From positions 4,576,001 through 4,640,000 of the forward strand of contig OY759599.1 in the NCBI GenBank assembly GCA_963662465.1: 64,000 nt of DNA. The letters run 5' to 3'. Both the position numbers and the translations under genes were made by a program. Every line of letters begins with the position of its first letter. Position 1 is the first letter of the stretch. This DNA is from Desulfatiglandales bacterium (GTDB lineage Bacteria > Desulfobacterota > DSM-4660 > Desulfatiglandales > Desulfatiglandaceae). This document shows, piece by piece, positions 31,870 to 50,610 of this stretch. Under the pieces are notes generated by a model, which saw nothing but the letters and a program-made list of their open reading frames with translations, was not told the origin of the DNA and did no database searches.

Positions 31870-32379
31870 ATGAAAAAAAAGGTCTTACAACATATTTTTT
31901 CACTTAGAATTTGTGTCGGTTATCTCGGCGAGGCCGATCAATATTCCTGGTGGTCCAGCGGGTTCTTTTCTTCTACGAGCACTGCGTTTCTTTCACCGGT
32001 GTTTAGTAAAACAAGTTTTGCAGCTCAGTATTATGGTGTGAGAGAAGCCGCAATGATTGTGCATGATGAGCATATCGGTATCGGTAAAGGCGTATTCCAT
32101 TTATTCAGGCTACCGGAAACTCATGAAATTGAAATGCATCGCCTTCTGAACAATCCGGATACAAAAACAGCTGTTCAAGATCTCATCAAAAATAGGGAAG
32201 CAGCAGAACAATTTTTATCTGAATTCGGGGAAGACAATGGTGAACAAACCGTTGGCCCTTATCGACTGGATGATACAAGCAAAATCTTAATCCCCAAAAC
32301 CTGGGAAAAAGTTGCCGGACAATATGCAGCTGCATTTAAAAATGGCAATAAGACGTTCCCCTATTTCACGACATCATAA
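31870..32379 (+). CDS. brxE: BREX BrxE-family protein
   Basis: VGYLGE...WW...AFLSPVF...AAMIVHDEHIGIG..FHLFRLPE; first gene of the operon. Confidence 0.8.
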   Translation: MKKKVLQHIFSLRICVGYLGEADQYSWWSSGFFSSTSTAFLSPVFSKTSFAAQYYGVREAAMIVHDEHIGIGKGVFHLFRLPETHEIEMHRLLNNPDTKTAVQDLIKNREAAEQFLSEFGEDNGEQTVGPYRLDDTSKILIPKTWEKVAGQYAAAFKNGNKTFPYFTTS

Positions 32380-33164
32380 TGAATAACCACAAACCATACA
32401 CCACACAACTAAGCGCCGGCCAGGGAGCAATTGACGAAACCCGAACACTCCTGGATCTGTGGCAGCCGGGAATAAAAGCATCTGCGCTATATCAGACTGC
32501 TCTGGATTCTGGTTATTTTTCCAATGTAACCGCAAGGCGGTTACGCAATATTGTGAAGGAATGTTTTTTGCCCAGATACCTCGTTAAAGGGGATTATCCT
32601 GCCGTTTTATTAAAAGCACTAAAAAACAACCTTTCCTCAGCAGAATTGTCGAAACTATTTTTTCTTTTCACCGCAAGGGCCAATCCGATTTTGGCGGATT
32701 TTGTCAAAATGGTTTATTGGGCCAAATATGTCAGCGGCCAAGATTCAATCAGCAACACGGATGCAAAAAATTTTGTCATTGAAGCAAACCAGAACAGCAA
32801 AACCATTCGTTATTGGTCAGAACGTACCATTCAAAGGATGGCGGGTTATCTAACCGGCTGCTGCGCAGACTTTGGCATGCTTGAAAAAGGCCGCAAAAGT
32901 GTCCGTAAAATCATACCCTTTCGGATCGAACAAAAGGCAATGGCTTTACTGGCATATGATCTTCATTTTGCCGGTTTTGGTGATAACGCAGTAATTGCGC
33001 ATCCGGACTGGGAGTTGTTCGGATTGGAAAAAGAAGATTTGAAAGAGGAAATGAAACGTCTTTCTCTTAAAGGTTTTTTTATCATTCAATCTGCCGGAGA
33101 CGTTATACGCATTGGATGGAATCATAAAAGTTGGGAGGACCTGATTCATGTCATCGCTAAATGA
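32379..33164 (+). CDS. brxA: BREX BrxA (DUF1819)
   Basis: YTTQL.AG, TARRLRNIV.ECF, WSERT...DFG; gene order. Confidence 0.85.
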   Translation: MNNHKPYTTQLSAGQGAIDETRTLLDLWQPGIKASALYQTALDSGYFSNVTARRLRNIVKECFLPRYLVKGDYPAVLLKALKNNLSSAELSKLFFLFTARANPILADFVKMVYWAKYVSGQDSISNTDAKNFVIEANQNSKTIRYWSERTIQRMAGYLTGCCADFGMLEKGRKSVRKIIPFRIEQKAMALLAYDLHFAGFGDNAVIAHPDWELFGLEKEDLKEEMKRLSLKGFFIIQSAGDVIRIGWNHKSWEDLIHVIAK

Positions 33165-33552
33165 TGATTTCAAAGAATTGTTGGAACGAATACGGCATGG
33201 CCGCGAACTTGGGCACGCCAGCTTTGAGCCGATTTATTATCTCGTATTTTCACCATCCAAGATTTTGGAAGTGAAACGGCAAATGCCGGCCTGGACAGCC
33301 AAGTTGAAAAATGACGGATGGAATGTACATATCTTTTCAATTATGGAAAATATTGCACAAATACTTGAAAACGCTCCCCTCAGAAAGATATGGCTCACGG
33401 CTGACAGCAAAAACCCAACCAATTGGGAAAAAACCAATCAGTCTTTAGCAAATACATTAAGCAATGGGTCTTTGCAAAAAGCACTCGAACAAAAGCTTGC
33501 TGAATTGGATAATCGAGTAATCTATCATAGGTGTTGGAATGGAAAAAATTAA
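33148..33552 (+). pseudogene. brxB: BREX BrxB (DUF1788), apparently missing its C-terminal part
   Basis: FEPIYYLVF.P N-terminus; only 134 aa; lacks the usual C-terminal ..HP..R / YPG / NYR segment. Confidence 0.7.
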
Positions 33553-36500
33553 AGAACTGTTTGATCCCAAAAAAAATATACGGCGGACCATTGAAAAAGT
33601 CATCACCTATAATGCATCCCAGGAAAACAGGCTGAAAGCCGAGATAACGGAATATGTCGTCACTCATAGTATTGAAGACCAGTTTGAAAAATTGCTTTCA
33701 AGAATGCAGGCAGCGCTGGAAGCCGGAGGTGAAAATGAAGTCGGTGTATGGGTTTCCGGTTTTTATGGTTCCGGAAAAAGCTCATTTACCAAGTATTTAG
33801 GATTGGCCTTTGATGACCAAGTTCAAATTGACGGAACGCCTTTTATAAAGCACTTGCAGGATCGGCTCCATAAAGCCCAGACCAAAGCACTCTTGTCAAC
33901 TGTTTCCAAACGGTTTCCCGCAGCGGTTGTCTTTTTGGACCTTGCCAGTGAAATGCTTGCCGGTGCCACCATGGAAGATGTATCCACGGTGCTTTTTTAT
34001 AAAGTGCTTCAATTTGCAGGTTACTCACGCAATATAAAAGTGGCGGCTTTTGAACGCAGGCTTCAAAAAGATGGCCGGTATGACGAATTCAAACAAAAAG
34101 TCAAGACCGATATAGGTACCGATTGGCCGTCCATTCAAAATGACCCCCTCGTTGTAGACAGCATGATTCCGGATATTGCCCATCAGATGTATCCTGAAAT
34201 ATTTAAAACCTCATCCGCATTTAACACGGAAACAAGCGACTTTATTCAATTTGAAAATGAACGTGTCAAAGAAATGTTAGATATTGTGCGCGATGCCACC
34301 GGCAAACAACATATTCTTTTTATAATTGATGAAGTGGGGCAATATATTGGGTCACGCCAAAATCTTATCCTTAATATGGACGGGCTTGCCAAAAACCTTA
34401 AACAAATCGGCGACGGCAAAGTCTGGATTATCAGTACCGCCCAACAAACACTTACCGAAGATGATCCCAGGGCAGCGCTCAACTCTCCGGCACTTTACAA
34501 ACTAAAAGACCGTTTTCCGATTCAAATTGACCTGGAATCCAGCGATATCAAAGAAATTTGTTACAAGCGATTATTGGGCAAATCTTCAGCAGGCGAAAAA
34601 TTACTGGATAATTGTTTCGTCAAAAACGGTGAGGCATTAAGGCACAATACAAAACTTCAGGACGCCAAGTATTATGACTCTGATTTTAATAAAGAGACCT
34701 TTATAAACCTGTATCCTTTTTTGCCGGCACATTTTGATATCCTTCTTCATCTTTTGGGCGCATTGGCAAAATCCACTGGTGGCATCGGCCTCCGATCAGC
34801 CATTAAAGTGGTGCAGGATATATTAATAGAAGGTATCGCAAATCAACCGTCGGTGGCCGAACAATTGGTGGGTTGGCTGACCACAACCGTCATTATCTAT
34901 GATGCCTTGGAAAAAGACACCCGACGGGCCTTTCCTTCCATTCACCAGGCAGTGGGAAAGGTGCTGATCCGGTTTAATGATTCAAAGATTCATCAAGATG
35001 TTGCCAAGACAGTAGCCATTCTTCAGATTTTGGGCAACCTGCCTGTAACAATTCAAAATGTGTCCAGCTTAATGCACCCAGGCATCACTTCCCCATCCTG
35101 CAAGGATCAAGTGCAAACAGCCGTGAATGAATTAATCAATGATCCGTTTGTCCCGTTTGGGGAACAAGAAGGGAATCTCTGTTTTTTCAGTGAAAAACTT
35201 AATGACATTGAACTGGAGCGCTCCCAAATTCCCTTACGAACCATAGAAACCCGGCGGCTTTTTAATGAAGCATTAAAAGAAGCCTTCAATCCTTTGCCAA
35301 CCACCCGATTAAACGGCACATTGGTGGTCCGGACCGGATTGAAATCCCAGAGCGGATCATTTGCCGCAAGTCTTGCTGGTGAGCGCGAAACCATTCAGAC
35401 CATTGTGGAACTTAGCGCACCAGGTAATTTTGATACGGATCATACCCGAATAATCGATGAGTCCAGGGCGCGCAGTTCTCAATACACAATCTATCTTCTG
35501 GGCAAAGAAGATCCGGTTGTGAATGACAAACTGGCGGAAATGTATCGTTGCCGGGAAATTTGCAATCGCTATCGAAATGAACCCGACCAGGAAGTAAAAG
35601 AATACTGTTCTGCGCAATCAGACCGATCAACAAAACTGGCAAATGAGCTGCAACACCTTATTAAGCGATCCCTTGCCAAAGGAAGTTTTTTGTTTCGTGG
35701 CAAATCAACGGCGGTGGACAACTTGGATCAAGATTTGCTCGAATCATGCAAAAAACATCTTGCAAGTGTTGCCCCCCAGGTGTTTGATAAAAATTCCGAA
35801 GCCCCGGTCCGTGTGGACACCTCTTTGGCTGAAAAATTTTTAAAAGCAGGCAATTTGTCTGCCATCACATCTCAAATTGATCCATTGGATCTTGTGCAGA
35901 CCGTCGGTGCCACCCCATCGATACGCAAAGACCATATTTCTTTGATCAGCATCCGTGACTATATCGACCGCAATGGAACAGTTGAAGGAAAACGTTTGAT
36001 AGAGCACTTCACAAGTGCCCCATTCGGATGGTCTCAAGACACATTACGATATCTTATTGCCGCATTGCTTCTTGCCGGTGAAATCAAGCTAAAGGTTTCC
36101 GGCCGGGAAGTTACCGTGAATGGCCAACAGGCCATTGATGCCCTAAAGACAAACAATACCTTTAAATCCGTTGGGATCTCTCTGCGTGAGGGAAGGCCTT
36201 CTAATGAAATCCTTGCGCGAGCGGCGGAACGTTTGACGGATTTGATCGGCGATACGGTCGTTCCATTGGAAGATGAAATCAGTAAAGCCACAGCAAAGTA
36301 TCTGCCCCAATTTCAATCTAAATACGCCCCATTAGCGGAAAAGCTGGATACTTTAAATCTCCCGGGAGCAGATCGTTTAAAATCGGTTAGCAAAGAGATC
36401 GCAGATATTCTTTTTACCGATGCATCCGATGCCCCGGAACGGCTCGGCGGGGAAGAATCCGGTCTATACGATAATCTAAAATGGGCGGGGATTGTAGATA

Positions 36501-37165
36501 TAGCATTTAAACAAGGGCTGGAAAGCACTATAAAGGAACTGCAGCAGCATCTTACAGCTATTAATTCATTCCCAGAGTCTGGCGTGCCGGGATTATTGCG
36601 GCAAGATCTTGCAGAAGAAATTTCGCTATTAGAAGAACGTCTTTCAACTGAAAATTTTTTCCGAAATGCAACCGAGTTTACCACTGCGCTAACCAGCATT
36701 AAAACATGTGTCCGTGATGCCACAGAAAAAATGAATGAAGTACAGGAAAAAACCATTAAAGAAGCAGAAACAGACCTTAGGCGATTAAACGAATGGCATG
36801 AGCTGACTCAGGAAGAGCAAACCAGCGTTTTATCACAAATTGAAAATTTTAAGATTACGCCGGAAGAAAACATTGATGGAATAAAACAACTTATCACCCA
36901 AGAGTTTAATATTTATACGACGATCCAAGACATACGCAAAAGAATCATCTCCATGGGAGAAGAACGTGCAGCCAAAAAAGAAAAAGAACGGCTGGAAAAA
37001 GCAAAAGAAGAAAACACTTATTTAAAAACGTATTCAATCCCCCTTAAGATTATCTCTCTTCAGCAGCTAAACGATATGCTGAAGAATATTGAGCAAATTC
37101 GAGTGGATGCTATAAAACACGATAAGTTCGAAATACGTTTTATTGTTGAACCGTCATCTGATTGA
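33539..37165 (+). CDS. brxC: BREX P-loop ATPase BrxC
   Basis: GVWVSGFYGSGKS, IIDEVGQY, LKDRF, YPFLP, APFGW; 1208 aa. Confidence 0.95.
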   Translation: MEKIKELFDPKKNIRRTIEKVITYNASQENRLKAEITEYVVTHSIEDQFEKLLSRMQAALEAGGENEVGVWVSGFYGSGKSSFTKYLGLAFDDQVQIDGTPFIKHLQDRLHKAQTKALLSTVSKRFPAAVVFLDLASEMLAGATMEDVSTVLFYKVLQFAGYSRNIKVAAFERRLQKDGRYDEFKQKVKTDIGTDWPSIQNDPLVVDSMIPDIAHQMYPEIFKTSSAFNTETSDFIQFENERVKEMLDIVRDATGKQHILFIIDEVGQYIGSRQNLILNMDGLAKNLKQIGDGKVWIISTAQQTLTEDDPRAALNSPALYKLKDRFPIQIDLESSDIKEICYKRLLGKSSAGEKLLDNCFVKNGEALRHNTKLQDAKYYDSDFNKETFINLYPFLPAHFDILLHLLGALAKSTGGIGLRSAIKVVQDILIEGIANQPSVAEQLVGWLTTTVIIYDALEKDTRRAFPSIHQAVGKVLIRFNDSKIHQDVAKTVAILQILGNLPVTIQNVSSLMHPGITSPSCKDQVQTAVNELINDPFVPFGEQEGNLCFFSEKLNDIELERSQIPLRTIETRRLFNEALKEAFNPLPTTRLNGTLVVRTGLKSQSGSFAASLAGERETIQTIVELSAPGNFDTDHTRIIDESRARSSQYTIYLLGKEDPVVNDKLAEMYRCREICNRYRNEPDQEVKEYCSAQSDRSTKLANELQHLIKRSLAKGSFLFRGKSTAVDNLDQDLLESCKKHLASVAPQVFDKNSEAPVRVDTSLAEKFLKAGNLSAITSQIDPLDLVQTVGATPSIRKDHISLISIRDYIDRNGTVEGKRLIEHFTSAPFGWSQDTLRYLIAALLLAGEIKLKVSGREVTVNGQQAIDALKTNNTFKSVGISLREGRPSNEILARAAERLTDLIGDTVVPLEDEISKATAKYLPQFQSKYAPLAEKLDTLNLPGADRLKSVSKEIADILFTDASDAPERLGGEESGLYDNLKWAGIVDIAFKQGLESTIKELQQHLTAINSFPESGVPGLLRQDLAEEISLLEERLSTENFFRNATEFTTALTSIKTCVRDATEKMNEVQEKTIKEAETDLRRLNEWHELTQEEQTSVLSQIENFKITPEENIDGIKQLITQEFNIYTTIQDIRKRIISMGEERAAKKEKERLEKAKEENTYLKTYSIPLKIISLQQLNDMLKNIEQIRVDAIKHDKFEIRFIVEPSSD

Positions 37166-37182
37166 AAACAAGGAGCAGATGG

Positions 37183-38220
37183 ATGATTAATTCGATTTCA
37201 ATAAAGAATTTTACAGCGTTTAAAGATCTTACCGTCAAGTACGGTAAGGGCATCAATGTGTTTTTAGGCGCTAATAGTACAGGAAAATCTCACCTCCTGA
37301 AACTGATGTATGCCTTGTGCGCCGCCAACAAACCGCTCGAAAAGGAACTTTTCGGCGATCCGCAACACTACATATCCAGTAAATTAAAAGGCGTTTTTAA
37401 GCCGGAAGGGAAAATCGGGCGACTCTGTCGCAATGATGAAAAAGCAATCATTCGTGCGGATTTCATTCCCGATCGATCCATTGAATTTGCATTTTCCAGT
37501 GATATGGATGAAGTCGTTATAACGGACAATCAATCATATGAAAAATATAGCTGGGAGCCGGTGTTTATCCCGCCAAAAGAGATGCTCAGCCTTTTTGAAG
37601 GCTTCTCAAGTCTTTATCTTAAGCGTGAACTCACCATTGATGAGACTTATTTTGATCTTTGCCAGGCCATTGAAACCCCCAAATTGAAAGGTGACCATAG
37701 CAAACAGGCATCTAATCTGTTGAAAAAAATAAAGAACATCTGTGAAGGCGAGTTTTTGCTCGTAAAGCAAAAAAAATTCTATTTCAAGCCGACAAAAGGC
37801 GAAATGCTTGAAGTCGAACTGGCTGCTGAAGGGTTTCGCAAATTGGGCATTCTGCAGCGTTTGATTGAAAATGGTCATATCCTGCCTGGCATAACCGGCC
37901 CGTTATTCTGGGATGAACCGGAATCAAACCTCAACCCCTCCCTCATGAAACAACTGGTGATCATTTTGTTGGAAATGGCGCGTGGGGGGCAGCAGATCTT
38001 TTTGGCAACCCATGATTACGTTGTTTTGAAATGGCTTGAGTTACTAAAGAATAAAGATGAGCAGATTTTTTTCCATGCGTTATATAAAAACGATGATGGA
38101 GAAATCGAACTAAACAGTACGGATGATTACTTAAAAATTTGCCCCAATGCCATTGATACAGCGTATTCTGATCTGATCGACCAGGATATTGAAAATACCA
38201 TGGGAGGCCTGGGCAAATGA
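37183..38220 (+). CDS. ABC/AAA_21-type ATPase inserted in the BREX operon
   Basis: IKNFTAF, GANSTGKS, AEGFRKL, WDEPESNLNP, ATHDY. Confidence 0.88.
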   Translation: MINSISIKNFTAFKDLTVKYGKGINVFLGANSTGKSHLLKLMYALCAANKPLEKELFGDPQHYISSKLKGVFKPEGKIGRLCRNDEKAIIRADFIPDRSIEFAFSSDMDEVVITDNQSYEKYSWEPVFIPPKEMLSLFEGFSSLYLKRELTIDETYFDLCQAIETPKLKGDHSKQASNLLKKIKNICEGEFLLVKQKKFYFKPTKGEMLEVELAAEGFRKLGILQRLIENGHILPGITGPLFWDEPESNLNPSLMKQLVIILLEMARGGQQIFLATHDYVVLKWLELLKNKDEQIFFHALYKNDDGEIELNSTDDYLKICPNAIDTAYSDLIDQDIENTMGGLGK

Positions 38221-38699
38221 GGGTCAGTGCGGACGGATTTGAGTTCGATTTTACAGATGCAATAGACGCCTTTATATTTGATGAAAAAGATAAACACCTG
38301 CCGACCTATCATGGATTGTCCCATGCCATGAAAGCCGTGGATATTGTTGTTGAACTTGAAAATGAATATCTGTTTGTTGAAGTGAAGGATTTTTACGCGC
38401 CCGAAGACTATCATGACAAGGACCATTTCAAGCATTTGACGGATGCTTTAAAGTATAAATACCGGGACTCGTTTTTATATCGCTGGGCTGAAAACAAAGT
38501 CGAAAAACCTGTCTATTATCTCTGTCTTCTGACCTTGGACAATGCCCTTATTTCGAGGATGAACAAGGAAATCCGCATACATCTGCCCTCCGGCCGGCCA
38601 ATTGATCGTTGGGAAAAAGAACTTTTACATGAATCACTGGTCTTAAATGAAGAACGGTGGAATCATAATTTCCCCAAATGGCCAGTCAGCCGTTCGTAA
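38217..38699 (+). CDS. Hypothetical protein with PD-(D/E)xK-like nuclease motif
   Basis: KAVDIVVE...LFVEVKD; ATGA overlap with the ATPase. Confidence 0.65.
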   Translation: MRVSADGFEFDFTDAIDAFIFDEKDKHLPTYHGLSHAMKAVDIVVELENEYLFVEVKDFYAPEDYHDKDHFKHLTDALKYKYRDSFLYRWAENKVEKPVYYLCLLTLDNALISRMNKEIRIHLPSGRPIDRWEKELLHESLVLNEERWNHNFPKWPVSRS

Positions 38700-38726
38700 C
38701 CCAAAATTTTATAAGGATACCCTTTC

Positions 38727-39400
38727 ATGGCGTTTGATCAGGCCACCAGAAATAAACTCCAGAAATTTGTATCAGAAGCTCGGGGCTTACTTGCAGACGA
38801 ATTTTCCCGGCAAATGCAAAATGATTATGGCATGGACCCGGATACCGGGGCGGTGAGTACTATCGACAGTCTTCCCCGGTTAACGGATGCACAACACCAA
38901 ACCGCAAAATTATTGCGGGAAACAATGGCCCATTACCAGGCATCCGATTCCGGAAATGATGTAAAGGAGATCTTGGGCCGAATCGTCCGGGAGCAGGCGT
39001 TTACGGTTTTAAACCGGCTGTGTGCCCTGCGCATGGCTGAAGCCCGTGGCATTTTAATTGAATCCATTGCAAAAGAGTACAACTCAAAAGGGTTTCAGTT
39101 GTATGCGCGTGTAGCCGGGACCTCTTTGGGTGAAACCGGTGATGCCTATAGGAACTATCTGTTCAGCGTGTTTGATGAATTTGCAATCGATTTGGCCGTT
39201 TTGTTTGACCGATATTCCCCCATGGGCAGGCTTTTTCCAAAAGAATCCGTCCTTTTGAAACTCCTTGACCAAATCAATGATGTTGAGATCGAAACCTTGT
39301 GGGCCGAAGATGAAACCATTGGCTGGATTTATCAGTATTTTAATTCAAAAGAAGAACGGAAGAAAATGCGGGATGAATCCTCCGCCCCGCGAAACAGCCG
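38727..39400 (+). pseudogene. pglX: PglX/BrxX methyltransferase, N-terminal about 225 aa only
   Basis: FTVLNRLCALRMAEARG, DETIGWIYQYFN, APRNSR, then homology stops before QFFTP and all MTase motifs. Confidence 0.88.
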
Positions 39401-40756
39401 GGTGAAGGTCTTGGAACCGAATTTCAAACTTCTGCCGAACCCATGGCTCCCATCGCCAAAGTGGTCTGTTCTTTTCTCAATACAAAAGGCGGAACGGTTT
39501 TCTGCGGAGTCGATGAGAATGGAAAAATTGTCGGCATTGAAGATGCCCGCTCCATTGCCTTACGTCTCCAGGCCTTTTTAAATGACGCTATTTCGCCCAA
39601 AGCCTTTTTTTCCGTCAATATCGATGAAGAAGACAGTCGATCGATTATCAACATTGAGGTGCCGCAGGGGAAAGATCGGCCCTATGTATTTGAAGGAGCG
39701 GTTTACATTCGTCAAAAATCGAAAACGCGTACATCTGACGCAATGACGTTAAGGAATATGGTGCAGACCCAATCCATCGAACCCGACCGTTGGGAGCGCC
39801 GGCCGTCCATGGCGCTGGAAGCAGAAGATCTGAACACCAATGAAATTCTTAAAACCATCGAGGATGCAGTTAGATCAGGTCGATTTGACTTCTCGAATGC
39901 GAAGGATCAAATTGCGGTCCTTGCGGAATTGGGGGTCTATCGGTCCTGAATGTACACCCAGGCCGCTGATGTGTTTTTCGCAAAAAATCCTGCCCTCAGG
40001 CATCCCCAGGTCCGGGTTCGCGCCACCCGTTTTGCCGAAGATAAAGGATCGAATGAATTTCTTGATTCCCGGATTTTTCAGGGGCCCCTGGTTCAGGTAC
40101 TAAACAAGGTGCTTGATTTTATGGAGAGAAACCTCCCCATCACTTCACACTTTAACAATGACCGGATTCAGCGGGAGGATAAACCGCAATATCCGGTGTA
40201 TGCGTTGCGCGAAGGACTGGTCAATGCGTTTGCCCACAGAGATTACACCGGTTTTTCAGGAGGTCTTTCAATCGGCATTTATCCTACAAGAATCGAAATT
40301 TGGAACTCCGGACGATTGCCGAAAGAACTGAAGGTAGGGGATTTACGTAAAAACCACCCGTCATTACCGACCAATCCGGATATCGCGCATTTGATTTACA
40401 TCAGGGGCCTGATGGAGCAAATCGGCCGTGGAACACAAAAAGTAATAAACGCATGCCGGGAGCATGGATTGCCCGCCCCTAAATGGCAGGATCAACCATC
40501 CGGCGTGACGCTGACATTATACTCAGCAAAGTCCGCGGTTTCTGATGAGACCCCATTAAATAACCGCCAGAAAGCCTTGATTGAGGCGCTCGCTCCCGGA
40601 GGTGAAATAAGACCTAAAGATTACAGGAAAAATTTCGCATCTGATGTGTCCGAACGCCAGGCACGGCGAGATTTAACGGTTCTCGAAGCATTAGCCTTGC
40701 TGGAGCGAAAGGGGAAAGGGGCGGGCACGCGATATGTGAGAGCTAAGCAGACATGA
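39401..40756 (+). pseudogene. AlbA_2/Schlafen-HATPase-wHTH protein, 5'-truncated, with in-frame TGA at 39947-39949
   Basis: GEG..TEF..CSFLNTKGG.VFCGV; ALREGLVNAFAHRDY; GRG; ARRDL..L HTH; both ORFs share one frame. Confidence 0.85.
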
Positions 40757-41004
40757 ACCGGACATAATCCAGCCATGGCCGGATTAATCCTTAAATATAG
40801 CGTAAAACATTGTAAGTTATATGGAAATTGTTATTACAGAGCAAAACAATTAGGACATTTCCGGACACGAATAGGAACGGCCGGATAATTTCAAAATATG
40901 ATGAAATGATTGTTTAGATGTTTGATTAAACACGAAATTCGCCATTATGTTTGGGGAATTGAATACGTAAAACAGGACATCAAGCGGACATTCGGAGCCA
41001 TGCC

Positions 41005-43530
41005 GTGAAAATTAAAGCATATCTGCAAAATCAAGTTTTCTTGCCGCGGATAAGAAAAAACAGCGTCCTTGTTATCTATGATCCGGAAAAGATTTATCAT
41101 GACGTTTGTCTGGATTTGGCAACCGCTGCCATCGAAGTAATTGACGCCACCGACAGCAGTATTACCAGTCGGGAAAAGGCTTTAAATGCATTAAGAGAAC
41201 TCGGTCGCCCAAATGCGAATTTGGAAGGATTGCTCGTATATGTCCCGGCCCAGGCGCCGGAGACTGAAGAAGACAAACAGAAAGACCCATTTGCACTTTA
41301 TACGGTATGCGGCAGTGTGTTTCCGGATGGGGCCGGAGATGCCTACATGCACCTCTGCTTAAAAGCGAAACCCGATCACGCAACGGAAATCCGCCGCATC
41401 TTCAGCCAGGACCCGACCCCTTCTTTTGCGGTGATTGATGCGGTTGGCGGCGGCAAAGGGTGGCCGAATTTACAAGTGGCGTTAAACGTGGAATCGGCAA
41501 ACGATATCCTTTTTGCCCTTCTGGCACCGGCGGAGTTACAAAAGCAATCATTGGAAGCAAAAGAGGGCTGGGTGTCCGAAGCCAAAGACCTGTTTGCCGT
41601 GTGTTTGGGTTTAAAACTCCTCACGCGGGGCAAGACCTGGTCGAGCATAGCAGACGAACTCTGGCGATTTGTTCTATACAGTGAATTTGTTTTCGATTTG
41701 CCGGGAGATCTGCCGGAATCCCTGGCCAATGTTCCACGTGCAAATGAAGCCGCAAAACCGATTGTTGAAGATCTTTGCGAAAGGCTTCGAAATGACCACC
41801 GGGCCCAGACCACCTATATCCAGCGTGCCCAGGCCATTGAACAGGAACTTGAGCTACCGAGCCACTGCATATCCATTACTGACCTTGGCGTACGGGACAC
41901 CTTCCCTTTTGAAGAAAGGTCTTTTCTGAACCAAGGCATGGAGGCGATTAAAAACAATGATGCCGATGCCGCTCGATACATTTTGAATCAACATACCAAC
42001 AATGTATGGGCCGGTATCGGTGAAAGCCAGGTGCAATGGGGGCTTGTGGGGGCTGCCCTTGCATTATGTGAAGCATGCGATGATTTTGAACGTCAATTGC
42101 CGGATTACTCACGGAACATGGATGCCTTGATCGATTTTTATGTGAGCAGCCTGCGTGAAGTCGATAGGCTTCAAAGGGAATTTGAGCAATCCGTATCCGA
42201 CAGCATGGCCTCTGCTTCCTCGATGAATGAAATCATTGAAAAAGCCCGAAGCAAATACCGCAGCCTGTCATCAAGAGTACAGGACTTATTCATCCGTCAT
42301 GTGGAAAAAACCGGTTGGCCGCCTCTCGGAAGACTATCCAATGCAGACCTTTTTGACAGCAAAATAGCCCCCAAGCTTCAAGAAAGCGGTCATAAAGTCG
42401 CTTTTTTTATGATTGATTCACTCCGCTATGAGCTGGGGGTGGCTTTGGAACAGCAGCTGGCGGAAGACGACCCTGTTGAATTGATTGCTGCGATGGCACA
42501 ATTACCGAGTATCACATCCGTGGGTATGGCCAGTTTGCTGCCGGACGCAGGAAACAATCTTAAACTGACCAAAGAAGACAATAAAGTGACACCTTTTCTT
42601 GGGACTGCAAGAATCACATCCGTAAAACAACGCATGGATGTGATGCGAAATAGATACGGTCAGCGGTTTGAAGAAATGAAATTGGCAGAGTTTATTAAGC
42701 CCCGGAAAAAGATACAGCCCGATGTGGACCTTTTGGTTATTCGAAGCGTTGAAATTGATGCTTACCTGGAAACAGACCCGGAATTGACACTCCGGTTGAT
42801 TCAAGATGCCTTGAAACGAATTCGGGTGGCGATTCACAAATTAAAAGGCATGGGATTCCATGAGGTGGTGATTGCCACGGATCATGGGTTTTTCTTAAAT
42901 CCCCATACGGAAGCCGGAGACGTCTGCACAAAGCCAAACGGAGATTGGTTGTTTGTTCATGATCGCCTGGCATTGGGAAATGGTGTTTCAGACAGTGCCA
43001 ATTTTATATTATCTGCGAGTCATTTGGGGATGCGGGGGGATTTTGAAAAGGTCGCTGGTCCGCGCAGTTTAGTTGCCTATCGTGCGGGGGAGCTGTATTT
43101 CCACGGTGGCATTTCTTTGCAGGAATGCATTGTCCCGGTGATTACCATCCGCTTGAGTAAAGAACAGCCCAGAAAAGAAAAAGCCAGAATCAAAATATCC
43201 TATAAAACTGATGCCAAGCATATTACATCGCGATTCCCGGTCATTGATGTGGAATATGAAAAAAAGCAGATGGAAATGTTTGTTCAGGAAAATGAAATTG
43301 AACTGCTGCTTGAGGCCCATGATAAAAATAGCAATGTGGTGGGGGAAGCAAAAGCCGGCGGCATTGTCAATCCGGCAACCGGAACCATTACGATCAAGGC
43401 CGGGGAACGTCTGAAAGTAACATTGAAAATGCAGGAAGAGTATCACGGAAAATTCACCGTGAAGGCCATGAACCCGTCAACATTGGCAATCTTCGACAAA
43501 CTGGATTTAAAAACCGATTATGTGGTGTAG
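41005..43530 (+). CDS. pglZ: BREX PglZ phosphatase/nuclease domain protein
   Basis: IDSLRYE, LPSIT..GMASLLP, ATDHGF, YFHGGISLQE. Confidence 0.95.
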   Translation: MKIKAYLQNQVFLPRIRKNSVLVIYDPEKIYHDVCLDLATAAIEVIDATDSSITSREKALNALRELGRPNANLEGLLVYVPAQAPETEEDKQKDPFALYTVCGSVFPDGAGDAYMHLCLKAKPDHATEIRRIFSQDPTPSFAVIDAVGGGKGWPNLQVALNVESANDILFALLAPAELQKQSLEAKEGWVSEAKDLFAVCLGLKLLTRGKTWSSIADELWRFVLYSEFVFDLPGDLPESLANVPRANEAAKPIVEDLCERLRNDHRAQTTYIQRAQAIEQELELPSHCISITDLGVRDTFPFEERSFLNQGMEAIKNNDADAARYILNQHTNNVWAGIGESQVQWGLVGAALALCEACDDFERQLPDYSRNMDALIDFYVSSLREVDRLQREFEQSVSDSMASASSMNEIIEKARSKYRSLSSRVQDLFIRHVEKTGWPPLGRLSNADLFDSKIAPKLQESGHKVAFFMIDSLRYELGVALEQQLAEDDPVELIAAMAQLPSITSVGMASLLPDAGNNLKLTKEDNKVTPFLGTARITSVKQRMDVMRNRYGQRFEEMKLAEFIKPRKKIQPDVDLLVIRSVEIDAYLETDPELTLRLIQDALKRIRVAIHKLKGMGFHEVVIATDHGFFLNPHTEAGDVCTKPNGDWLFVHDRLALGNGVSDSANFILSASHLGMRGDFEKVAGPRSLVAYRAGELYFHGGISLQECIVPVITIRLSKEQPRKEKARIKISYKTDAKHITSRFPVIDVEYEKKQMEMFVQENEIELLLEAHDKNSNVVGEAKAGGIVNPATGTITIKAGERLKVTLKMQEEYHGKFTVKAMNPSTLAIFDKLDLKTDYVV

Positions 43531-43533
43531 ATC

Positions 43534-45657
43534 ATGGATGAATTGGACAAGAAGTTAGGTTCTGTTTTTGAAGGCCGGATCGTCCGAAAAGACCTGTTGC
43601 ATCGAATCAAAAAGGGTACCAATGTCCCCACATTTGTGTTGGAGTTCTTGTTGGCGCGGTATTGTGCCAGTGATGAACCGGATGAAATCCAGGCAGGTAT
43701 GGAAGCTGTACTGGCAACGCTTCAGGATAATTATGTCAGACCCGATGAAGCCAATGCAGCCCAATCCAAAGTGGCAACCAATGGGAAGCATAAGTTTATC
43801 GACAAAGTACACGTTCGATATGTCGAGAAGGAAAAACGTCATTGGGCGTCTTTGGAAAATTTTAATTCCCAGCGCATTGCCATCGGCGAAAAATTTTATC
43901 GGGACAATGACCGGTTGCTGGAAGGCGGTATCTGGGCGGAAGTTACCGTTTCCTATAATGAATATGATGAGGATAACTATGCCTTTATCATTGATGATCT
44001 GCGCCCGATTCAATTGAGCCGATTCGATTTTGAACGATATGGTGAAGATCGGAAAAAACTTACGCGGGATGAGTGGCTGGATGTTATTTTGCGGTCCGTT
44101 GGATTAGAACCCTCTAAACTTTCACCCAGAATCAAATTTCATTACATTGCACGCCTTGCCCCGCTGGTACAGGCCAATTTTAATTTTATTGAACTGGGTC
44201 CCCGGGGGACCGGGAAATCATATTTCTTCAGTGAATTTTCACCTTATTCCACCTTGATCAGTGGCGGCCAATCAACAAAATCAGTCCTTTTCTATAATAA
44301 TGCCAGGAAAAAAATGGGATTGGTCGGCTTTTGGGATACTGTGGCGTTTGATGAAGTCGCAGGCATCAAAATTAAAGACCCGGATACCATCCAGATCATG
44401 AAGGATTATATGGCTAACGGGCGGTTTTCGCGCGGCGTGGAGGTGATTGCCGATGCCAGCATGGCCTTTGTCGGCAATATTGATCACTCCATAGAACAGA
44501 TTGTCAGATCCACCGAATATGATCTTTTCTTACCCCTGCCAAAGGAATTTGACCTGGCAATCATGGATCGTTTTGCCTGCTATCTGCCGGGATGGGAAAT
44601 CCCTAAAAACACATCCGCATATCTGACCAACAATTATGGATTCATCACAGATTACCTGGCTGAGGCCTTTCACTATCAATTAAAGCACCAAAACAAATAT
44701 GAAGTGGTGAACCATCGTGTTCGATTGGGCAAAGCCATTGAAGGCCGTGATGAAATCGGTATCAAGAAAACATTATGTGCGTTCTTAAAGATCCTTCATC
44801 CGATTGATGACCCCACGGACAAGGAGTTTGAAGAGTATGTGGCCTATGCAGTGGAGGCCCGGCGCAGAATAAAAGAACAGATGAACAAGCGGAAGCCCGA
44901 TGATGAATTTGCAAACATTAATCTTTCCTTTTTCACCGCAGATGGAAAAGAAATCATTGTTTATTGCCCTGAATCCAAAAACATCAAGGCTACCCAACAG
45001 CCTAAGCGCAAAAGCCTTGATATAGATTTTGACGATGAAGACGCCGGCGTTCAGGAAAAAGACCAGGTTGGTGCGGCAGAAAAAGCAAAGCCTGAAGAGG
45101 TGGAAACGCCTGCCGATATTTCAGAACCTGTAGCTGAGGAAAAGGATGATGAATCTAAGCCGGACCCAGAAATGCTCGATCTTAAAGAGCAGCATTATAC
45201 GATTTTTTATGGTGATATGGGTTTTAGCTATGAAACCATTATCGGGCCATATTTGAAAGGCGCAAAAGAAATCACCGTCGAAGACCCGTATATCCGTGTG
45301 ACGCACCAAATCCAGAATTTTATCCGCTTGTGCGAAACTATTGTTAAGCAAGCAACCATCCGCAAAATTAATCTCATCACCAGCTATGATGATAAAATAA
45401 ACATTTCCGAAATGCGGGATAGCCTGGAAGAACTCAAACAAAGCCTGCTTGAAATCGATATTCTTTTAGATATTAAACTGGACCCCAATATGCATGACCG
45501 GGAAATTCGAATCGACAACGGATGGGTCATCAAAATCGGCCGGGGTTTGGATTTTTATCAAAAACCCAGTTCCTGGTTTGAAATCGGTGTAAATGATCTG
45601 TCTTTACGCAAATGCCTTGAGACAAAGGTTGATATTTATAAGGCAGATAAGAATTGA
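43534..45657 (+). CDS. brxL: BREX BrxL with C-terminal MIT_C/PLD-like domain
   Basis: NVPTFVLEFLL, ELGPRGTGKS, AFDEV, PGWEIPK; EDPYIR...HDREI..DNGW.IKIGRGLD. Confidence 0.93.
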   Translation: MDELDKKLGSVFEGRIVRKDLLHRIKKGTNVPTFVLEFLLARYCASDEPDEIQAGMEAVLATLQDNYVRPDEANAAQSKVATNGKHKFIDKVHVRYVEKEKRHWASLENFNSQRIAIGEKFYRDNDRLLEGGIWAEVTVSYNEYDEDNYAFIIDDLRPIQLSRFDFERYGEDRKKLTRDEWLDVILRSVGLEPSKLSPRIKFHYIARLAPLVQANFNFIELGPRGTGKSYFFSEFSPYSTLISGGQSTKSVLFYNNARKKMGLVGFWDTVAFDEVAGIKIKDPDTIQIMKDYMANGRFSRGVEVIADASMAFVGNIDHSIEQIVRSTEYDLFLPLPKEFDLAIMDRFACYLPGWEIPKNTSAYLTNNYGFITDYLAEAFHYQLKHQNKYEVVNHRVRLGKAIEGRDEIGIKKTLCAFLKILHPIDDPTDKEFEEYVAYAVEARRRIKEQMNKRKPDDEFANINLSFFTADGKEIIVYCPESKNIKATQQPKRKSLDIDFDDEDAGVQEKDQVGAAEKAKPEEVETPADISEPVAEEKDDESKPDPEMLDLKEQHYTIFYGDMGFSYETIIGPYLKGAKEITVEDPYIRVTHQIQNFIRLCETIVKQATIRKINLITSYDDKINISEMRDSLEELKQSLLEIDILLDIKLDPNMHDREIRIDNGWVIKIGRGLDFYQKPSSWFEIGVNDLSLRKCLETKVDIYKADKN

Positions 45658-45723
45658 TTTTGATGAGACATCAGCTCCGAGTTATTGAATAGGACATATG
45701 AAAGGGTTAAGTCTGCCGTTGAC

Positions 45724-46251
45724 TCTTGGTCCTTATCACCGGGAAGTTTATGAATCAGATGTCGTTGGGGAGTCCGTTGATAGTACGGACGCGGTTTAAT
45801 TCCCGATTAAACCGTGAGGCCAACATTAGGGATTATCACTCTGGGTAAGACCTTCCCGTCGCTCCCATCGAACGGGATTGCCAGAGGTAGGTTGCTCGAT
45901 ACACCGCAAGGTGGTCGGGAGAAGGGCCTGAGGCCGGGGGTCAGACCCGTTTTTCTCCCTGGAGGGGAGGATTAGGCCGAGGTGGCGTGCATGTTGGGGG
46001 AGGGGTTGCTAATTCTCTGCACCCCGTTGACCGAAAGTCATCTGAGTCATGAGTATGCGGGTATAACTCATGGTGGGCATGCATAGGTGTTAGGTATGGG
46101 GAGGATCTGAAAGGCACGGATAGGTGACCGAGGGAAGCCTTATAGCGCCCTGCGCATCAAAGTGACACACGATGTGTAGTAGGTTTTGGGAGACCGAAGG
46201 TTCTATGAGGTGGCAGCGCAGCCGTAAGGGCTGCACCGGTGATGCCCAGGA
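45724..46251 (+). ncRNA. Candidate large (about 530 nt) structured non-coding RNA of unrecognised class
   Basis: Terminal helix ATCACCGG 45735-42 / CCGGTGAT 46236-43 plus TCTTGG/CCAGGA; more than 10 nested hairpins; GCAA and GTAA loops; G-U pairs favour the + strand; no credible ORF. Confidence 0.7.
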
Positions 46252-46279
46252 TGAGATCGGTGGAGGGAAAAGGAAGAAC

Positions 46280-46396
46280 ATGAAGTGCCGGTCATGTGGC
46301 CACAGATTCGCCGGAGAATTCTACGAAAGCTGCCCGGAGTGCTACAGTGTCAACACCGAAGGCACCGCCGATGAGAAGTACGATGGGTATCGGTGA
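46280..46396 (+). CDS. 38-aa zinc-ribbon microprotein
   Basis: MKCRSCGHRF...CPECYS (2x CxxC); purine-rich RBS GGAGGGAAAAGGAAG. Confidence 0.65.
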   Translation: MKCRSCGHRFAGEFYESCPECYSVNTEGTADEKYDGYR

Positions 46397-46749
46397 TAAA
46401 ACGGATGAATTCAAACTGGGAATATCTTGACAATATAGCCAGGGATTTGTTTCCACTAAAATGCTGTAATACTTAATGAATATAACAAAAAGTGGCAGTT
46501 TGGCCGGCGACAAGGCATTAAGAAAAAGTCAGAAAAAACAGGTAAAGTCGAAAAATGAGAATAAGCAAGAAAAAAGAGGGACAAGAAATAGAGAGAGTTC
46601 AAAAATCAATATATTTGAAATCATAAAAACAGATTTTTTTCATGTCTTTTTGGGAATTAGGATGAAAAGTCTGGTGTCGTTATCTGTAAAGTGAGAGCAG
46701 CCGCTCGAAAGTGGCAAGAATGAAGAAAATTTTTGGTTTTGTTAGAGCC

Positions 46750-47076
46750 CTAAGAGCCCAAAAGGCGACGGCTTAATAGGGTTTGCATATCTCTACGCCC
46801 ATCAACAATCAATAAAATGTAGACATTGATTTCCATTATTCTGTAAATGATACGATACGGCTTAAAGAAGATTTCACGGTATTCGCGAATTCCCAATGCG
46901 GCCAATTCCGGAGGATATACACCTCACAGGGGAGAGTCAGACAAACTAACGAGTGCCGCTTCGATTTTTTCTAGAATATGATTCGCGCTATTCTGTGTGT
47001 CATGCCGCGCTATGTAGTCATAGATTTCTTCCAGGTCACGTGCAGCGTGTTCAGTCATCAGGACTTCGAAAGGCAT
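46750..47076 (-). pseudogene. RelE/ParE-family toxin with internal TGA (absent from ORF track)
   Basis: MPFEVLMTEHAARDLEEIYDYIA...SPL*GVYPPEL..YRE..FKPYRIIY..DGRRDMQTLL; stop at 46924-46926. Confidence 0.88.
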
Positions 47077-47210
47077 CAACGATTTCTCCGGTTCTGACGA
47101 AGCCGTTTGACTACATCGGTGGCAGGTTCTACTTTGCCATATTCTATCTGCTGATTTCCAAGGGCTAGGATTTTCAGCAAAGCCATGGTTTCCTGGGTTT
47201 GCTCATAGAA
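47076..47210 (-). pseudogene. C-terminal remnant of Phd/YefM antitoxin
   Basis: YEQTQETMALLKILALGNQQIEYGKV...; TGATG overlap with the toxin; N-terminus absent. Confidence 0.8.
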
Positions 47211-47273
47211 GGTACAACCCTATGGTTTATCCTCTGAACCCGAATACCGGAAGACCCGGTTGCGGCAATCTCC

Positions 47274-47648
47274 TTACACTTCCTTTTCCCGGCAGCTTTT
47301 CAAAACCCGCGCCACCGCCGCTGTGAAACTCTTCCGGTCAAAGGGCTTTTCCATCCATTCCGTTTGCGTCACACGCATTTCGGCAATCCGCGGCTCGCCG
47401 CTTTGAAGGACCACATCAAGTTCCGTGGTCTCCACGTCCACGAGGGGAAACCCGAAAAACGATCCGACAATGAAACCGGGATCCCGGCCGAAAAGGGTTT
47501 CAGCAGCCGGGTTCACCAGACGAACGATGCCCTCCGCATCCGCAACGATTATGGCATCGCTGTTGTTGAATATGACCTGTGCCAGTTGACGTTCGCCGGC
47601 CCTGAGGGTCATGGTTTCCACATCTTGACGGGTGATATCGGTCATCAT
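47274..47648 (-). pseudogene. Internally deleted Kai output gene: PAS fragment fused to the end of a REC domain
   Basis: NPAAETLFG..FFGFPLV..TTELD..AEMRV then EKPFDRKSFTAAVARVL, like the end of 50655..52175. Confidence 0.7.
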
Positions 47649-47664
47649 ATGTAACGCTTCCCTA

Positions 47665-49179
47665 TTATTTAAAAAGCTCTTTGACCCGGTCTATTTCTTC
47701 CGGTGCGGAAAAAACAGGATGGCCCGAGAGGATTCCGGTCACATTGCTGAAGGATTTCCCGATATGCATGCCTTCGCCGTCGATGTTGAATTCCCGGATA
47801 TCCTTGTCGTGCATGGAGCCCCGCATCTTGAGCGCCGTGATCCCGCGGCGCATCTCTCCGAACATCTCCACGTACCGAAGCAGGATAATCGTGTCGGTAA
47901 TGGTGGAGATGTGCGCCTCCGTCACCGACGTTCCCCCCATGAGTTCGCCGGTGGTGGATGTGAAGAGCCCCGCAACCTCCTGATGCTTGATAAAGGAGGT
48001 GAGGGCGATGACGAATTCCCGAAATCCCTTGATGGTGGAGACGCGCTCCAGGGCCGAAAGGCTGTCTACGATCACCCGGTGGGGTTTGAACTCCCGGATG
48101 ATGCTCTTGATGATGATCAGATGATCCTCCAGGCCTTCCGCTTCCGGATACCGGCATACCACCTTGAGTGTGCCGTCATTCTCCATCTGTTCAAAGTCTA
48201 TGCCCCAGCCGGTGGCATTTCTGAAAAGCTGCTCCCGGCTCTCCTCAAAGGCCAATATGAGCGCCTTCTGATTGTTTTTCGCCGCTTCCGCCGCAAACCC
48301 GGCGGAAAGCATGGTCTTTCCACATCCCGTGGCGCCGGATACCAGAATGATGGAGTCCCGAAAAAACCCGCCGCCGCACATCTTGTCCAGATCGGCGTTT
48401 CCGGAGCTGATACGGACGGTGGAAGAGCGCTGTTTCAATTCAATCCCCGATAGCGGTATGGCGACGATGCCGGTGTTCTTGATCACCGTAAACGGGTACT
48501 CTCCCTTCTGGTGGCTGGTGCCGCGGAATTTGAGGATCTCCATGGTGCGGCGGCGCTTTTCCGCCTCCAGAACATTGCGCAGGATGATCACGTTGTCGGC
48601 CACGAATTCCTCGATGCCGAACCGTGCGATAGCGCCATACTCCTCCGTGCGCTCCGCCGTGATGATAGCCGTCACGCCCATCTGTTTCACCGCGGCGGCT
48701 ATTTTGAAGAGTTCGTTGCGCACCATGCCCGCGTCGCTGAACCTCCCGAAGATCGATCCGATGGAATCCATGCTGACCCGCCTGGCGCCAATCTTTCCAA
48801 CAGCATATTCGATACGGGCCAGGAGGGCGCCAAGGTCATATTCTCCGGCAATGACGTGATCTTCTCCCACCACAGGAGAGGCATCCACAAAGGCCCACTT
48901 CCCTTCCAGCTCCCACTTTGCCACATCCCAGCCCAGAGAAATCACGTTCTTTCGGATATCATCGGGCGGTTCCTCGAAGGTGATAAAAACCCCCGGTTCT
49001 TCCTTTTTGAGGATCCCTTCGGAAAGAAACTGGACCGCAAACACCGTCTTGGCGCTTCCCGATGTGCCGGCGATGAGGGTGGTCCGCCCCTTCGGGAGCC
49101 CCCCTTCACTGATCATGTCGAATCCTTCAATGCCGGTCTCAATTTTCTCGATGCCTATGATTTTTTCCATCTCAGTCAT
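47665..49179 (-). CDS. kaiC: KaiC, KaiC3/KaiC1-like (ST phosphosite)
   Basis: [47 protein letters not shown]-loop-like [10 protein letters not shown]. Confidence 0.96.
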
Positions 49180-49484
49180 GCTTGATCTCCTTTCCCTTGA
49201 TTGTCGTCCGTCACGGGGGAGAGATCCAGTCCGAGGAGAACCTTCTCCGAATTGGAGAGATCGCCGATGATCCGCCTGAGCGGGGGCGGCAGGTCTTTGA
49301 TCAGGGTCGGCGTGGCGAGTATTTTTTCATTTTCCGCCAGCTGTGGACTCTCTAGTACATCAATGATCTGGAGATCGTAGAGATCTTTCAAATCCCGCTC
49401 GCAAATCTTCTGCAAATTTGAGATGGCGCGCTCTGATCTCGGCGTTTTCCCGGTGATATAAAGGCGCAACTTGAATTTGTTCAT
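49176..49484 (-). CDS. kaiB: KaiB, KaiB3-like
   Basis: [48 protein letters not shown]. Confidence 0.96.
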
Positions 49485-49503
49485 TTTTCCCTCCGATAAA
49501 TGA

Positions 49504-50610
49504 TTATGATGGCTGTTCTGTTATTGTTTTTGGATTTGTAGAGATGCCGGCGCCCTGGGCACGGTTTCGATAAAATGACACCAGATGCCCCATAAGTTCA
49601 AGCACCATGATCCATCCTTCCCCGGTATAGGCCTTTTTCTTTTCAGCGGTAGCGGTTTCCCGGGCCTTCTCTTTGAGGGCGGTGGTGTGAATATCAACGA
49701 TATCACGGGGCCCTGCCTTGTAAAACCCCAGGCTTTCAGCCATTGAGGAGAGGCGCCCGGATATATCATGTTTTACTTTGAAGGCCTGCTGATCCAGGGC
49801 CAGATCCATCAGCGCTTTATAGCCGTCCACCAGATGGCGGAAGGTATCGGGAAACCCCTCCATCAGGGTCATTGTACCGTACATTTTGGCGGTGACACCG
49901 GTTTGGGGAGGAGAAGAAAGCGTGGCCAGGGAACGCAATTCCTTCTCCCGTCGTTCTCGATCCTTCGCCTGCTCCAACGCCGCATGAGTTCTCTTTAGTT
50001 GCTCCGCCTTCTCTTCCAACTCCCGGGTACGCGCTTCCACCAGTTCTTCCAGATGCCGGCGGTGCCCATCCAGTTCCTCCCGAACTTCGCTCAGATCACG
50101 GTTTTTCTGAATGGCGTCTTCATATCCGGAAAGGAGAAGGTTCAACATCTGCCTGCGACTTGCATATATGACTCGCCGCTCGTCCCCCACGGCCAGGTCC
50201 AGACCCCCTTCGGAATCCATTTCCCTTTGCAGCGGATGCCACTGGAGAATCGACGCTACTTTTGCGAGCAATTCCCCTTCTTGATACGGTTTAGTCAGGA
50301 AATAGTCCGCCATCACTTCAAGGGCACGAATAACGTCCGTTACGTTGGATAGCACCGTAAGCAGTACCACCGGAACTTCTCTTAAGGCATCATCGCCCTT
50401 GATGGCCTCGCACATCTCATATCCGTCCATCACCGGCATCTGAACATCGGACAGAATCAGATCGGGTCGGTCCTTTCGAGCCGCGGCAAGCCCTTCGCTG
50501 CCGTTTACCGCCACCCGGACCCCATAACTGTGCTCCCTGAGCAAGGCCTTGAGCAACATGGCCTGGGTCGGGCTGTCTTCAACGATCAGAATTTGGGGGA
50601 CTTCTTTCAT
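49504..50610 (-). CDS. Receiver domain + coiled coil + KaiA3-like C-terminal domain
   Basis: REC (EDSPTQ, SDVQMP, TKP); C-term [36 protein letters not shown]...[15 protein letters not shown]; directly upstream of kaiB-kaiC. Confidence 0.8.

Follow-up and report, generated by a model that had tools for sequence, protein, structure and literature searches.

A structured stretch downstream of brxL in a Desulfatiglandales genome is very probably the truncated 5′ part of a group II intron

A folded stretch at the end of a BREX locus

In the genome of a Desulfatiglandales bacterium, brxL, the last gene of a BREX locus, is followed by a stretch of about 530 nt that had been proposed, from the sequence alone, to be a large and elaborately folded noncoding RNA in the size class of OLE, ROOL and GOLLD, possibly forming a new class. 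What is this stretch, and does it belong to an RNA family of its own? We addressed this question in a window of 64 kb, i.e., the whole stretch of DNA analyzed, which spans positions 4576001-4640000 of a genome assembled as a single contig (8.16 Mb). Positions are those of the window unless genome positions are specified. Our results indicate that positions 45772-46251 very probably correspond to domains I-III of a group II intron, its 5′ part, left as a truncated and inactive remnant, and do not represent a new RNA class.

The features of the locus are listed in Table 1. The remnant starts 115 nt 3′ of the brxL stop codon. The stretch is G-rich with no credible open reading frame (ORF), as originally described: no ORF of 90 aa or more is present in 45658-46171. 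Its GC content is 0.50-0.59, compared with about 0.42 in brxL, with a positive GC skew. A promoter and terminator scan of 45400-46800 returned no terminator and one promoter-like site, on the − strand; both results were at or below the level of shuffled sequences.

The BREX locus itself (32379-45657) appears degraded and invaded. The only PglX match is a 284-aa ORF (38727-39581) that covers positions 1-230 of a 1332-position model (PADLOC), and BrxB, a short protein of 134 aa, covers model positions 1-123 of 190. Between brxC and pglZ are found, among other genes, a HEC-02A/HEC-02B pair (37162-38699) and a split AlbA_2/HATPase_c_4 gene (39443-40756). The defense island is flanked by two KaiC-like genes, located at 27686-29386 and 47665-50610 (− strand), one of which is followed by KaiB and a response regulator.

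Table 1. Features between brxL and the zinc-ribbon gene fragment (window coordinates)
Feature	Position	Strand	Basis
brxL	43534..45657	+	Pfam BrxL_N, BrxL_ATPase, MIT_C; PADLOC BrxL, 940 bits
Repeated motif of about 27 nt, core AAGTCTGCCGTTGACTC	45703..45730	+	Matches in related genomes and own genome
Spacer, 41 nt, no detected homology	45731..45771	+	Family alignments; nhmmer envelope begins 45795
Group II intron remnant (very probable), domains I-III	45772..46251	+	nhmmer, BLAST, family alignment, covariation
Domain I of remnant (approximate borders)	45772-46140	+	Read from alignment
Domain II of remnant (approximate borders)	46148-46205	+	Read from alignment
Shortened domain III of remnant (approximate borders)	46206-46251	+	Read from alignment
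Junction overlap GATGCCCAGGA	46241..46251	+	End of match to intron-bearing contig, start of match to zinc-ribbon contigs
Zinc-ribbon gene, 3′ part	46238..46396	+	BLASTP to 105-aa paralogue, tblastn
38-aa ORF starting at internal ATG 46280	46280-46396	+	Zinc-ribbon

The motif that precedes the remnant is repeated elsewhere. Matches of 86-96% identity were found in 8 related genomes belonging to several genera, out of 61 genomes searched, and four sites with up to 2 mismatches are present in the own genome. Motifs of this type (GGGGTCAAGTCTGCCGTTGACTCTT-like) occur in multiple copies per genome (loci L017-L024, L028-L030 and L032-L034), often as inverted pairs about 20-40 nt apart; such pairs were seen in L019, L021, L023 and L028. 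From these sequence features, the motif resembles a MITE or a terminal inverted repeat; it is not part of the intron. No transposase was found beside an own-genome copy (L032).

Comparison with shuffled sequences had been suggested as a check of folding. On the + strand, the fold of 45700-46280 reached −223.7 kcal/mol (z = −2.87), and none of 100 shuffles was as good. The − strand gave a nearly equal z of −2.61, with one of 100 shuffles as good; since both strands score similarly, the z-score by itself selects no strand. The 530-nt unit had been delimited by two helices pairing its ends across 500 nt. All four arms lie where they had been placed (TCTTGG at 45724-29, ATCACCGG at 45735-42, CCGGTGAT at 46236-43 and CCAGGA at 46246-51), as does the hairpin GCAGCC-GTAAG-GGCTGC at 46218-34, and the 8-bp closing helix is present in the + strand minimum-energy fold. 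However, neither closing helix has a counterpart in any relative in the family alignment presented below. Their 5′ arms are located upstream of the intron homology, TCTTGG being inside the 27-nt motif, and their 3′ arms are located at the border of domains III and IV. In a post hoc test in which both flanks were shuffled (mononucleotides), 62 of 2000 shuffles produced a perfect 8-bp helix between 45700-45769 and 46210-46279, which is suggestive of the 8-bp closing helix and the adjacent 6-bp helix being somewhat unlikely by chance.

Homology to a family of group II introns

The absence of group II hallmarks, asserted in the original prediction, was contradicted by a homology search. We built an nhmmer profile from four members of an intron family (the own-genome copy and loci L037, L038 and L039), excluding the stretch under study. 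The profile matched 45815-46223 on the + strand, over model positions 77-485 of 652 (E = 7e-50, 163.5 bits), and this was its sole match in the 64-kb window. By BLAST, four other places in the own genome matched 45817-45953 with 75% identity, and identity to the intron copies was 75-82% overall. Pairwise and multiple alignments extended the homology with the 5′ ribozyme part of the intron from about 45772 to about 46251. The first hairpin, for example, is GTCCGT/ACGGAC in the remnant and GACAG/CTGTC in the own-genome intron, and the loop TGATAGT is common to both.

The four own-genome copies consist of a unit of 1.6-1.9 kb alike at 99.9-100% identity, one of them being cut short at its 3′ end. 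Three of the four are inserted in a U-tract behind a terminator-like hairpin of the host. Their 399-aa ORF contains the reverse transcriptase (RT) domain RVT_1 (5.9e-44) and the GIIM domain (3.8e-20), with no further Pfam match, and is directly followed by a match to RF00029 (Intron_gpII, domain V/VI) of 37.9 bits (E = 5.5e-5), the gathering score being 40. On the Rfam D1-D4 model, a full family copy scores 27.4 bits against a gathering score of 35. The genome as a whole is rich in introns, with 54 matches to RF00029 (42 above the cut-off) and 50 RT matches, several of which have internal stop codons.

A pattern scan of one genome per species revealed five family loci, distributed over four or more phyla. 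L037 and L038 possess both an RT and domain V/VI. In L039, about 820 nt separate domain V/VI from the domain I motif upstream and no RT is present, making it a complete ORF-less intron; this member, of about 0.9 kb, lies at about 1736-2620 (− strand) in a betaproteobacterial MAG, and its domain V/VI scores 35.9 bits. L036 and L035 (the latter at the same place as L012, in genome G034) carry neither and are therefore fragments. The relatives with an RT and domain V/VI are found in unrelated contexts, none beside BREX. No relative with a truncation like that of the remnant was detected, either among the 61 genomes searched or among the five loci of the pattern scan; the sole other match to part of the remnant in the 61 genomes is a shorter piece that G034 carries in another context.

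Covariation among homologs, another check that had been proposed, was assessed with RNAalifold on a family alignment of five sequences, including the remnant. Compensatory changes were found in 52 of 140 consensus pairs. The idea of RNA-level selection on the + strand is thereby upheld, and it is the ribozyme on which this selection acted. The remnant shares the conserved helix structure of domain I, with compensatory changes. Several of the helices described earlier were supported by such changes in the relatives: the long hairpin CTCTGG/CCAGAG with its inner TCCCGT/ACGGGA, the multi-helix junction whose closing stem is GTGCATGT/GCATGCAT, together with the hairpins inside it, and the GNRA hairpin CTCGAT-a-CACC-GCAA-GGTG-GTCGGG, whose loop is GCAA, GUAA, GCGA or GUGA across the five sequences. 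The proposed three-way junction fared less uniformly, as its GTCCGT/ACGGAC helix covaries but its GTTGG/CCAAC stem has no counterpart in any relative in the family alignment.

The remnant keeps 105 of the 140 consensus pairs, compared with 124-136 for the other four rows of the alignment, in a consensus that is dominated by three close relatives and penalizes any diverged row. Domain I is nearly intact in its front half (38 of 39 pairs), the losses being in the back of domain I and in domains II and III. Because the remnant folds well and retains the front of domain I to this extent, its decay is mild, which might reflect either a recent deletion or retention of the fold for some reason.

Missing parts and the junction with a zinc-ribbon gene

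A search against Rfam had been recommended, and it gave no match to the stretch at either gathering or relaxed thresholds. None of the 4227 families of Rfam 15 matched anywhere in the 64-kb window at the gathering score, and relaxing the threshold to E = 10 yielded nothing above chance level in 45500-46500 (where all E values were 1.6 or higher) or in 46200-47700. Intron_gpII was without a match at this threshold in both intervals. The 54 domain V/VI matches of the genome all lie outside the window, the nearest being at genome positions 4407850 and 4984107. An ad hoc domain V pattern found no match over the window, a result of little weight since 0.33 were expected by chance. The lack of a domain V/VI match indicates that the remnant is a fragment and not a complete intron. 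Likewise, tblastn with the family RT detected no RT in 45001-48000, a stretch whose sole ORF is the zinc-ribbon gene fragment. Rfam misses the remnant because RF00029 covers domain V/VI, which is absent here. Since even a full copy remains below the gathering scores of RF00029 and of the D1-D4 model, a 5′ fragment shows no hit at all.

The 5′ boundary is also incomplete. The remnant has no GUGYG motif at this boundary, since it aligns GGAG or GAGU where full copies have GUGA(C/U). It lacks the conserved 5′ hairpin GGGCGACYUGCAGCCCC followed by GUUUUCU..AGUGA, and in the family alignments neither the hairpin nor GUGA is recognizable in the spacer in which they are expected. This spacer contains the ATCACCGG arm and the GTTGG arm. 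The GGGCGACYUGCAGCCCC hairpin is found in all five relatives with an aligned 5′ end, as a slight variant in G034, while L037 begins too late; its conservation as an internal element refers to every full family copy whose 5′ end was visible. At the other end, domain III of the remnant is without the CAUAGUA-type stretch conserved in the family alignment.

In L007 (923-2863), L008-L010, L036, L038 and L039, a terminator-like hairpin (GGGCGACYTGCAGCCCC) is located inside the mobilized unit, with GTTTTCT and GTGA, in this order, downstream of it. In the own genome, a separate terminator hairpin of the host directly precedes this unit. The 5′ splice site actually used by the family may therefore be located 5′ of the GUGA that looks canonical; alternatively, the lineage may have a 5′-exon stem-loop of its own. 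Alternative upstream 5′ splice sites are reported for a IIC intron in PMC1702495.

The gene downstream of the remnant is truncated as well. It had been taken for a zinc-finger microprotein, and it is really a gene of about 100 aa truncated to its 3′ half. By BLASTP, its frame aligns only with residues 48-101 of a 105-aa paralogue encoded in the own genome (38 of 54 identical, E = 3e-26), the protein homology beginning at about 46232-46238. The N-terminal part is present in the homologues of L013, L027, L014 and L026 (tblastn).

Proteins of this zinc-ribbon family have about 95-105 aa, with an acidic N-terminus (MDWDDEFD...), then ...SAYFFLSDDAQDEI... and a CxxC...CxxC zinc ribbon. Members are found in L025 (1355-1669), at genome positions 5597099 and 5609762, and in L013, L014, L026, L027/L015 and L016. 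In L025, the gene is preceded by one that seems helicase-like on visual inspection. The G021 gene has an in-frame stop directly before the internal Met of the zinc ribbon and may exist there as two ORFs. Pfam searches with the zinc-ribbon proteins gave sub-threshold matches only (DUF7129, 17.5-18.2 bits against a cut-off of 30), and PADLOC assigned them to no defense family.

Metagenome contigs were informative about the junction. A contig of 1648 nt (X3) matches 45300-46251 at about 99%, with 8 differences and 2 gaps, and then continues with 232 nt unlike the window. In the first 30 letters of this continuation, a 14-mer differs at a single position from the beginning of domain IV in the own-genome intron (13 of 14 identical), a likeness judged by eye on the 30 letters that were visible. 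Contigs with zinc-ribbon homologues (X3, X4) start to match at 46241. The match on the intron side ends at 46251 and that on the gene side starts at 46241, which defines the 11-nt overlap. Judging from these matches, the overlap is probably the breakpoint of a deletion at a microhomology; a close relative would still have more of the intron, and the genome studied would have lost this stretch by deletion. A single X3 contig joining 45600 to 46409 was set aside, its shorter side comprising 28 letters.

Together, these data are consistent with the following scenario. A group II intron would originally have been located downstream of brxL. A deletion would then have removed the intron from the border of domains III and IV onward, including domains V and VI and the RT gene, together with all sequence up to the middle of the downstream zinc-ribbon gene, and the ends would have been joined at the overlap. 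An RNA that has neither domain V (the catalytic center) nor domain VI (the branch site), and no maturase, is unable to splice or to retrohome. What remains would be the fossil of a ribozyme scaffold, which could explain why many of its helices still fold: they would have been inherited. The remnant is most likely non-functional.

Other readings and known systems

Could the remnant nevertheless have been co-opted? It could be the transcribed leader of the 38-aa ORF, a decoy for maturases or the 5′ half of a split, trans-splicing intron. We consider co-option in any of these forms very unlikely, and transcription with or after brxL combined with a role as leader or decoy more unlikely still. The absence of a terminator-like site between brxL and the ORF makes read-through plausible. 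RNA-library contigs (X5) match 45772-46000 (3 differences) and 46018-46168 (no difference) at 99-100% identity, the first one beginning precisely at the start of the intron homology; yet these contigs cannot show the ends of an RNA and the library may contain DNA, so that they give a weak hint of transcription. The preserved front of domain I would suit a retained role, but the family-conserved 5′ hairpin and GUGA are gone, domain III is shortened and the truncated form recurs in none of the 61 genomes. The G021 gene suggests that a short C-terminal ORF may stand alone elsewhere. For trans-splicing, the products of some of the roughly 50 genomic RT matches could act in trans; however, among the domain V/VI matches inspected none was recognized as an orphan of this family, three of the 54 corresponding to the three copies that retain a 3′ end.

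A second reading is that of a complete ORF-less group II intron, with domains IV-VI farther downstream and the zinc-ribbon ORF inside domain IV. The L039 member demonstrates that such an architecture exists in the family, and the small ORF begins about where the RT ORF begins in full copies. We nevertheless regard this reading as extremely improbable, given the absence of a domain V/VI match in 46200-47700 (E up to 10) and throughout the window, the failure of a search over about 1.5 kb downstream to find a domain V hairpin with the catalytic triad, the origin of the zinc-ribbon ORF as the 3′ half of an independent conserved gene, and the different, intron-like sequence that a near-identical strain has past 46251. 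It is just as hard to believe in a new class of large structured noncoding RNA tied to defense islands, as the lack of an Rfam match, the elaborate fold (z = −2.87) and the adjacent BREX locus suggested, because the homology to group II domains I-III is strong, the relatives carry an RT and domain V/VI away from BREX and the closing helices that define the 530-nt unit occur in none of them.

The truncated intron remnant is retained as the explanation. Its value is mainly corrective: what appeared to be a new large structured RNA beside a defense system is very probably a decayed mobile intron. It also points to a blind spot, since 5′ fragments of this intron family pass as "no hit" in Rfam, and to a cheap filter, the comparison of candidate noncoding RNAs with the introns of the same genome. 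In addition, it documents one example of a deletion in a defense island whose BREX system itself seems broken (pglX being reduced to its first ~225 residues).

With OLE, ROOL and GOLLD the remnant has its size and multi-helix fold in common; unlike them, it matches none of the Rfam families and is homologous to group II introns. The covariance models of these three RNAs, of RNase P and of tmRNA (Rfam 15) gave no match at the gathering score in the 64 kb.

The parent family has features of class IIC introns, namely insertion behind terminator hairpins and an RT without an endonuclease domain. In the domain V triad, the own-genome intron has CGC instead of the AGC of the Rfam consensus; CGC is presumably a mark of class IIC. 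These traits recall class IIC, a likeness that concerns insertion site, RT domains and CGC. PMC1702495 deals with group IIC introns such as B.h.I1 of Bacillus halodurans; insertion behind terminator-like hairpins, as seen for three of the four own-genome copies, and an RT limited to RVT_1 and GIIM bring the family close to this class (PMC1702495, PMC4424553). In contrast to group IIC introns, the family has a ribozyme of about 650 nt 5′ of the RT, including a conserved terminator-like hairpin upstream of GUGA in every copy. In the remnant itself, these target and boundary features are all absent.

According to PMC4424553, bacteria rarely contain ORF-less introns, which are found in genomes that also harbor related introns. 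Like those described there (see also PMC2882425), the remnant has no RT gene and is accompanied by related, RT-encoding introns. Such ORF-less introns retain both domain V and domain VI and are competent to splice, which also appears to be the case for L039; the remnant has neither domain.

The closest comparison is with truncated bacterial group II introns. Most bacterial copies are truncated or inactivated, often amid other mobile DNA, as stated in PMC4424553. The truncated introns covered there (see also PMC4181065 on an RmInt1-type remnant) consist of a partial ribozyme without a working RT or catalytic domain, as does the remnant downstream of brxL. They are located outside housekeeping genes, amid mobile and defense DNA and in intron-rich genomes, as is the case here. 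There is no difference of principle between them and the copy studied, which is cut at the border of domains III and IV and fused to a truncated zinc-ribbon gene.
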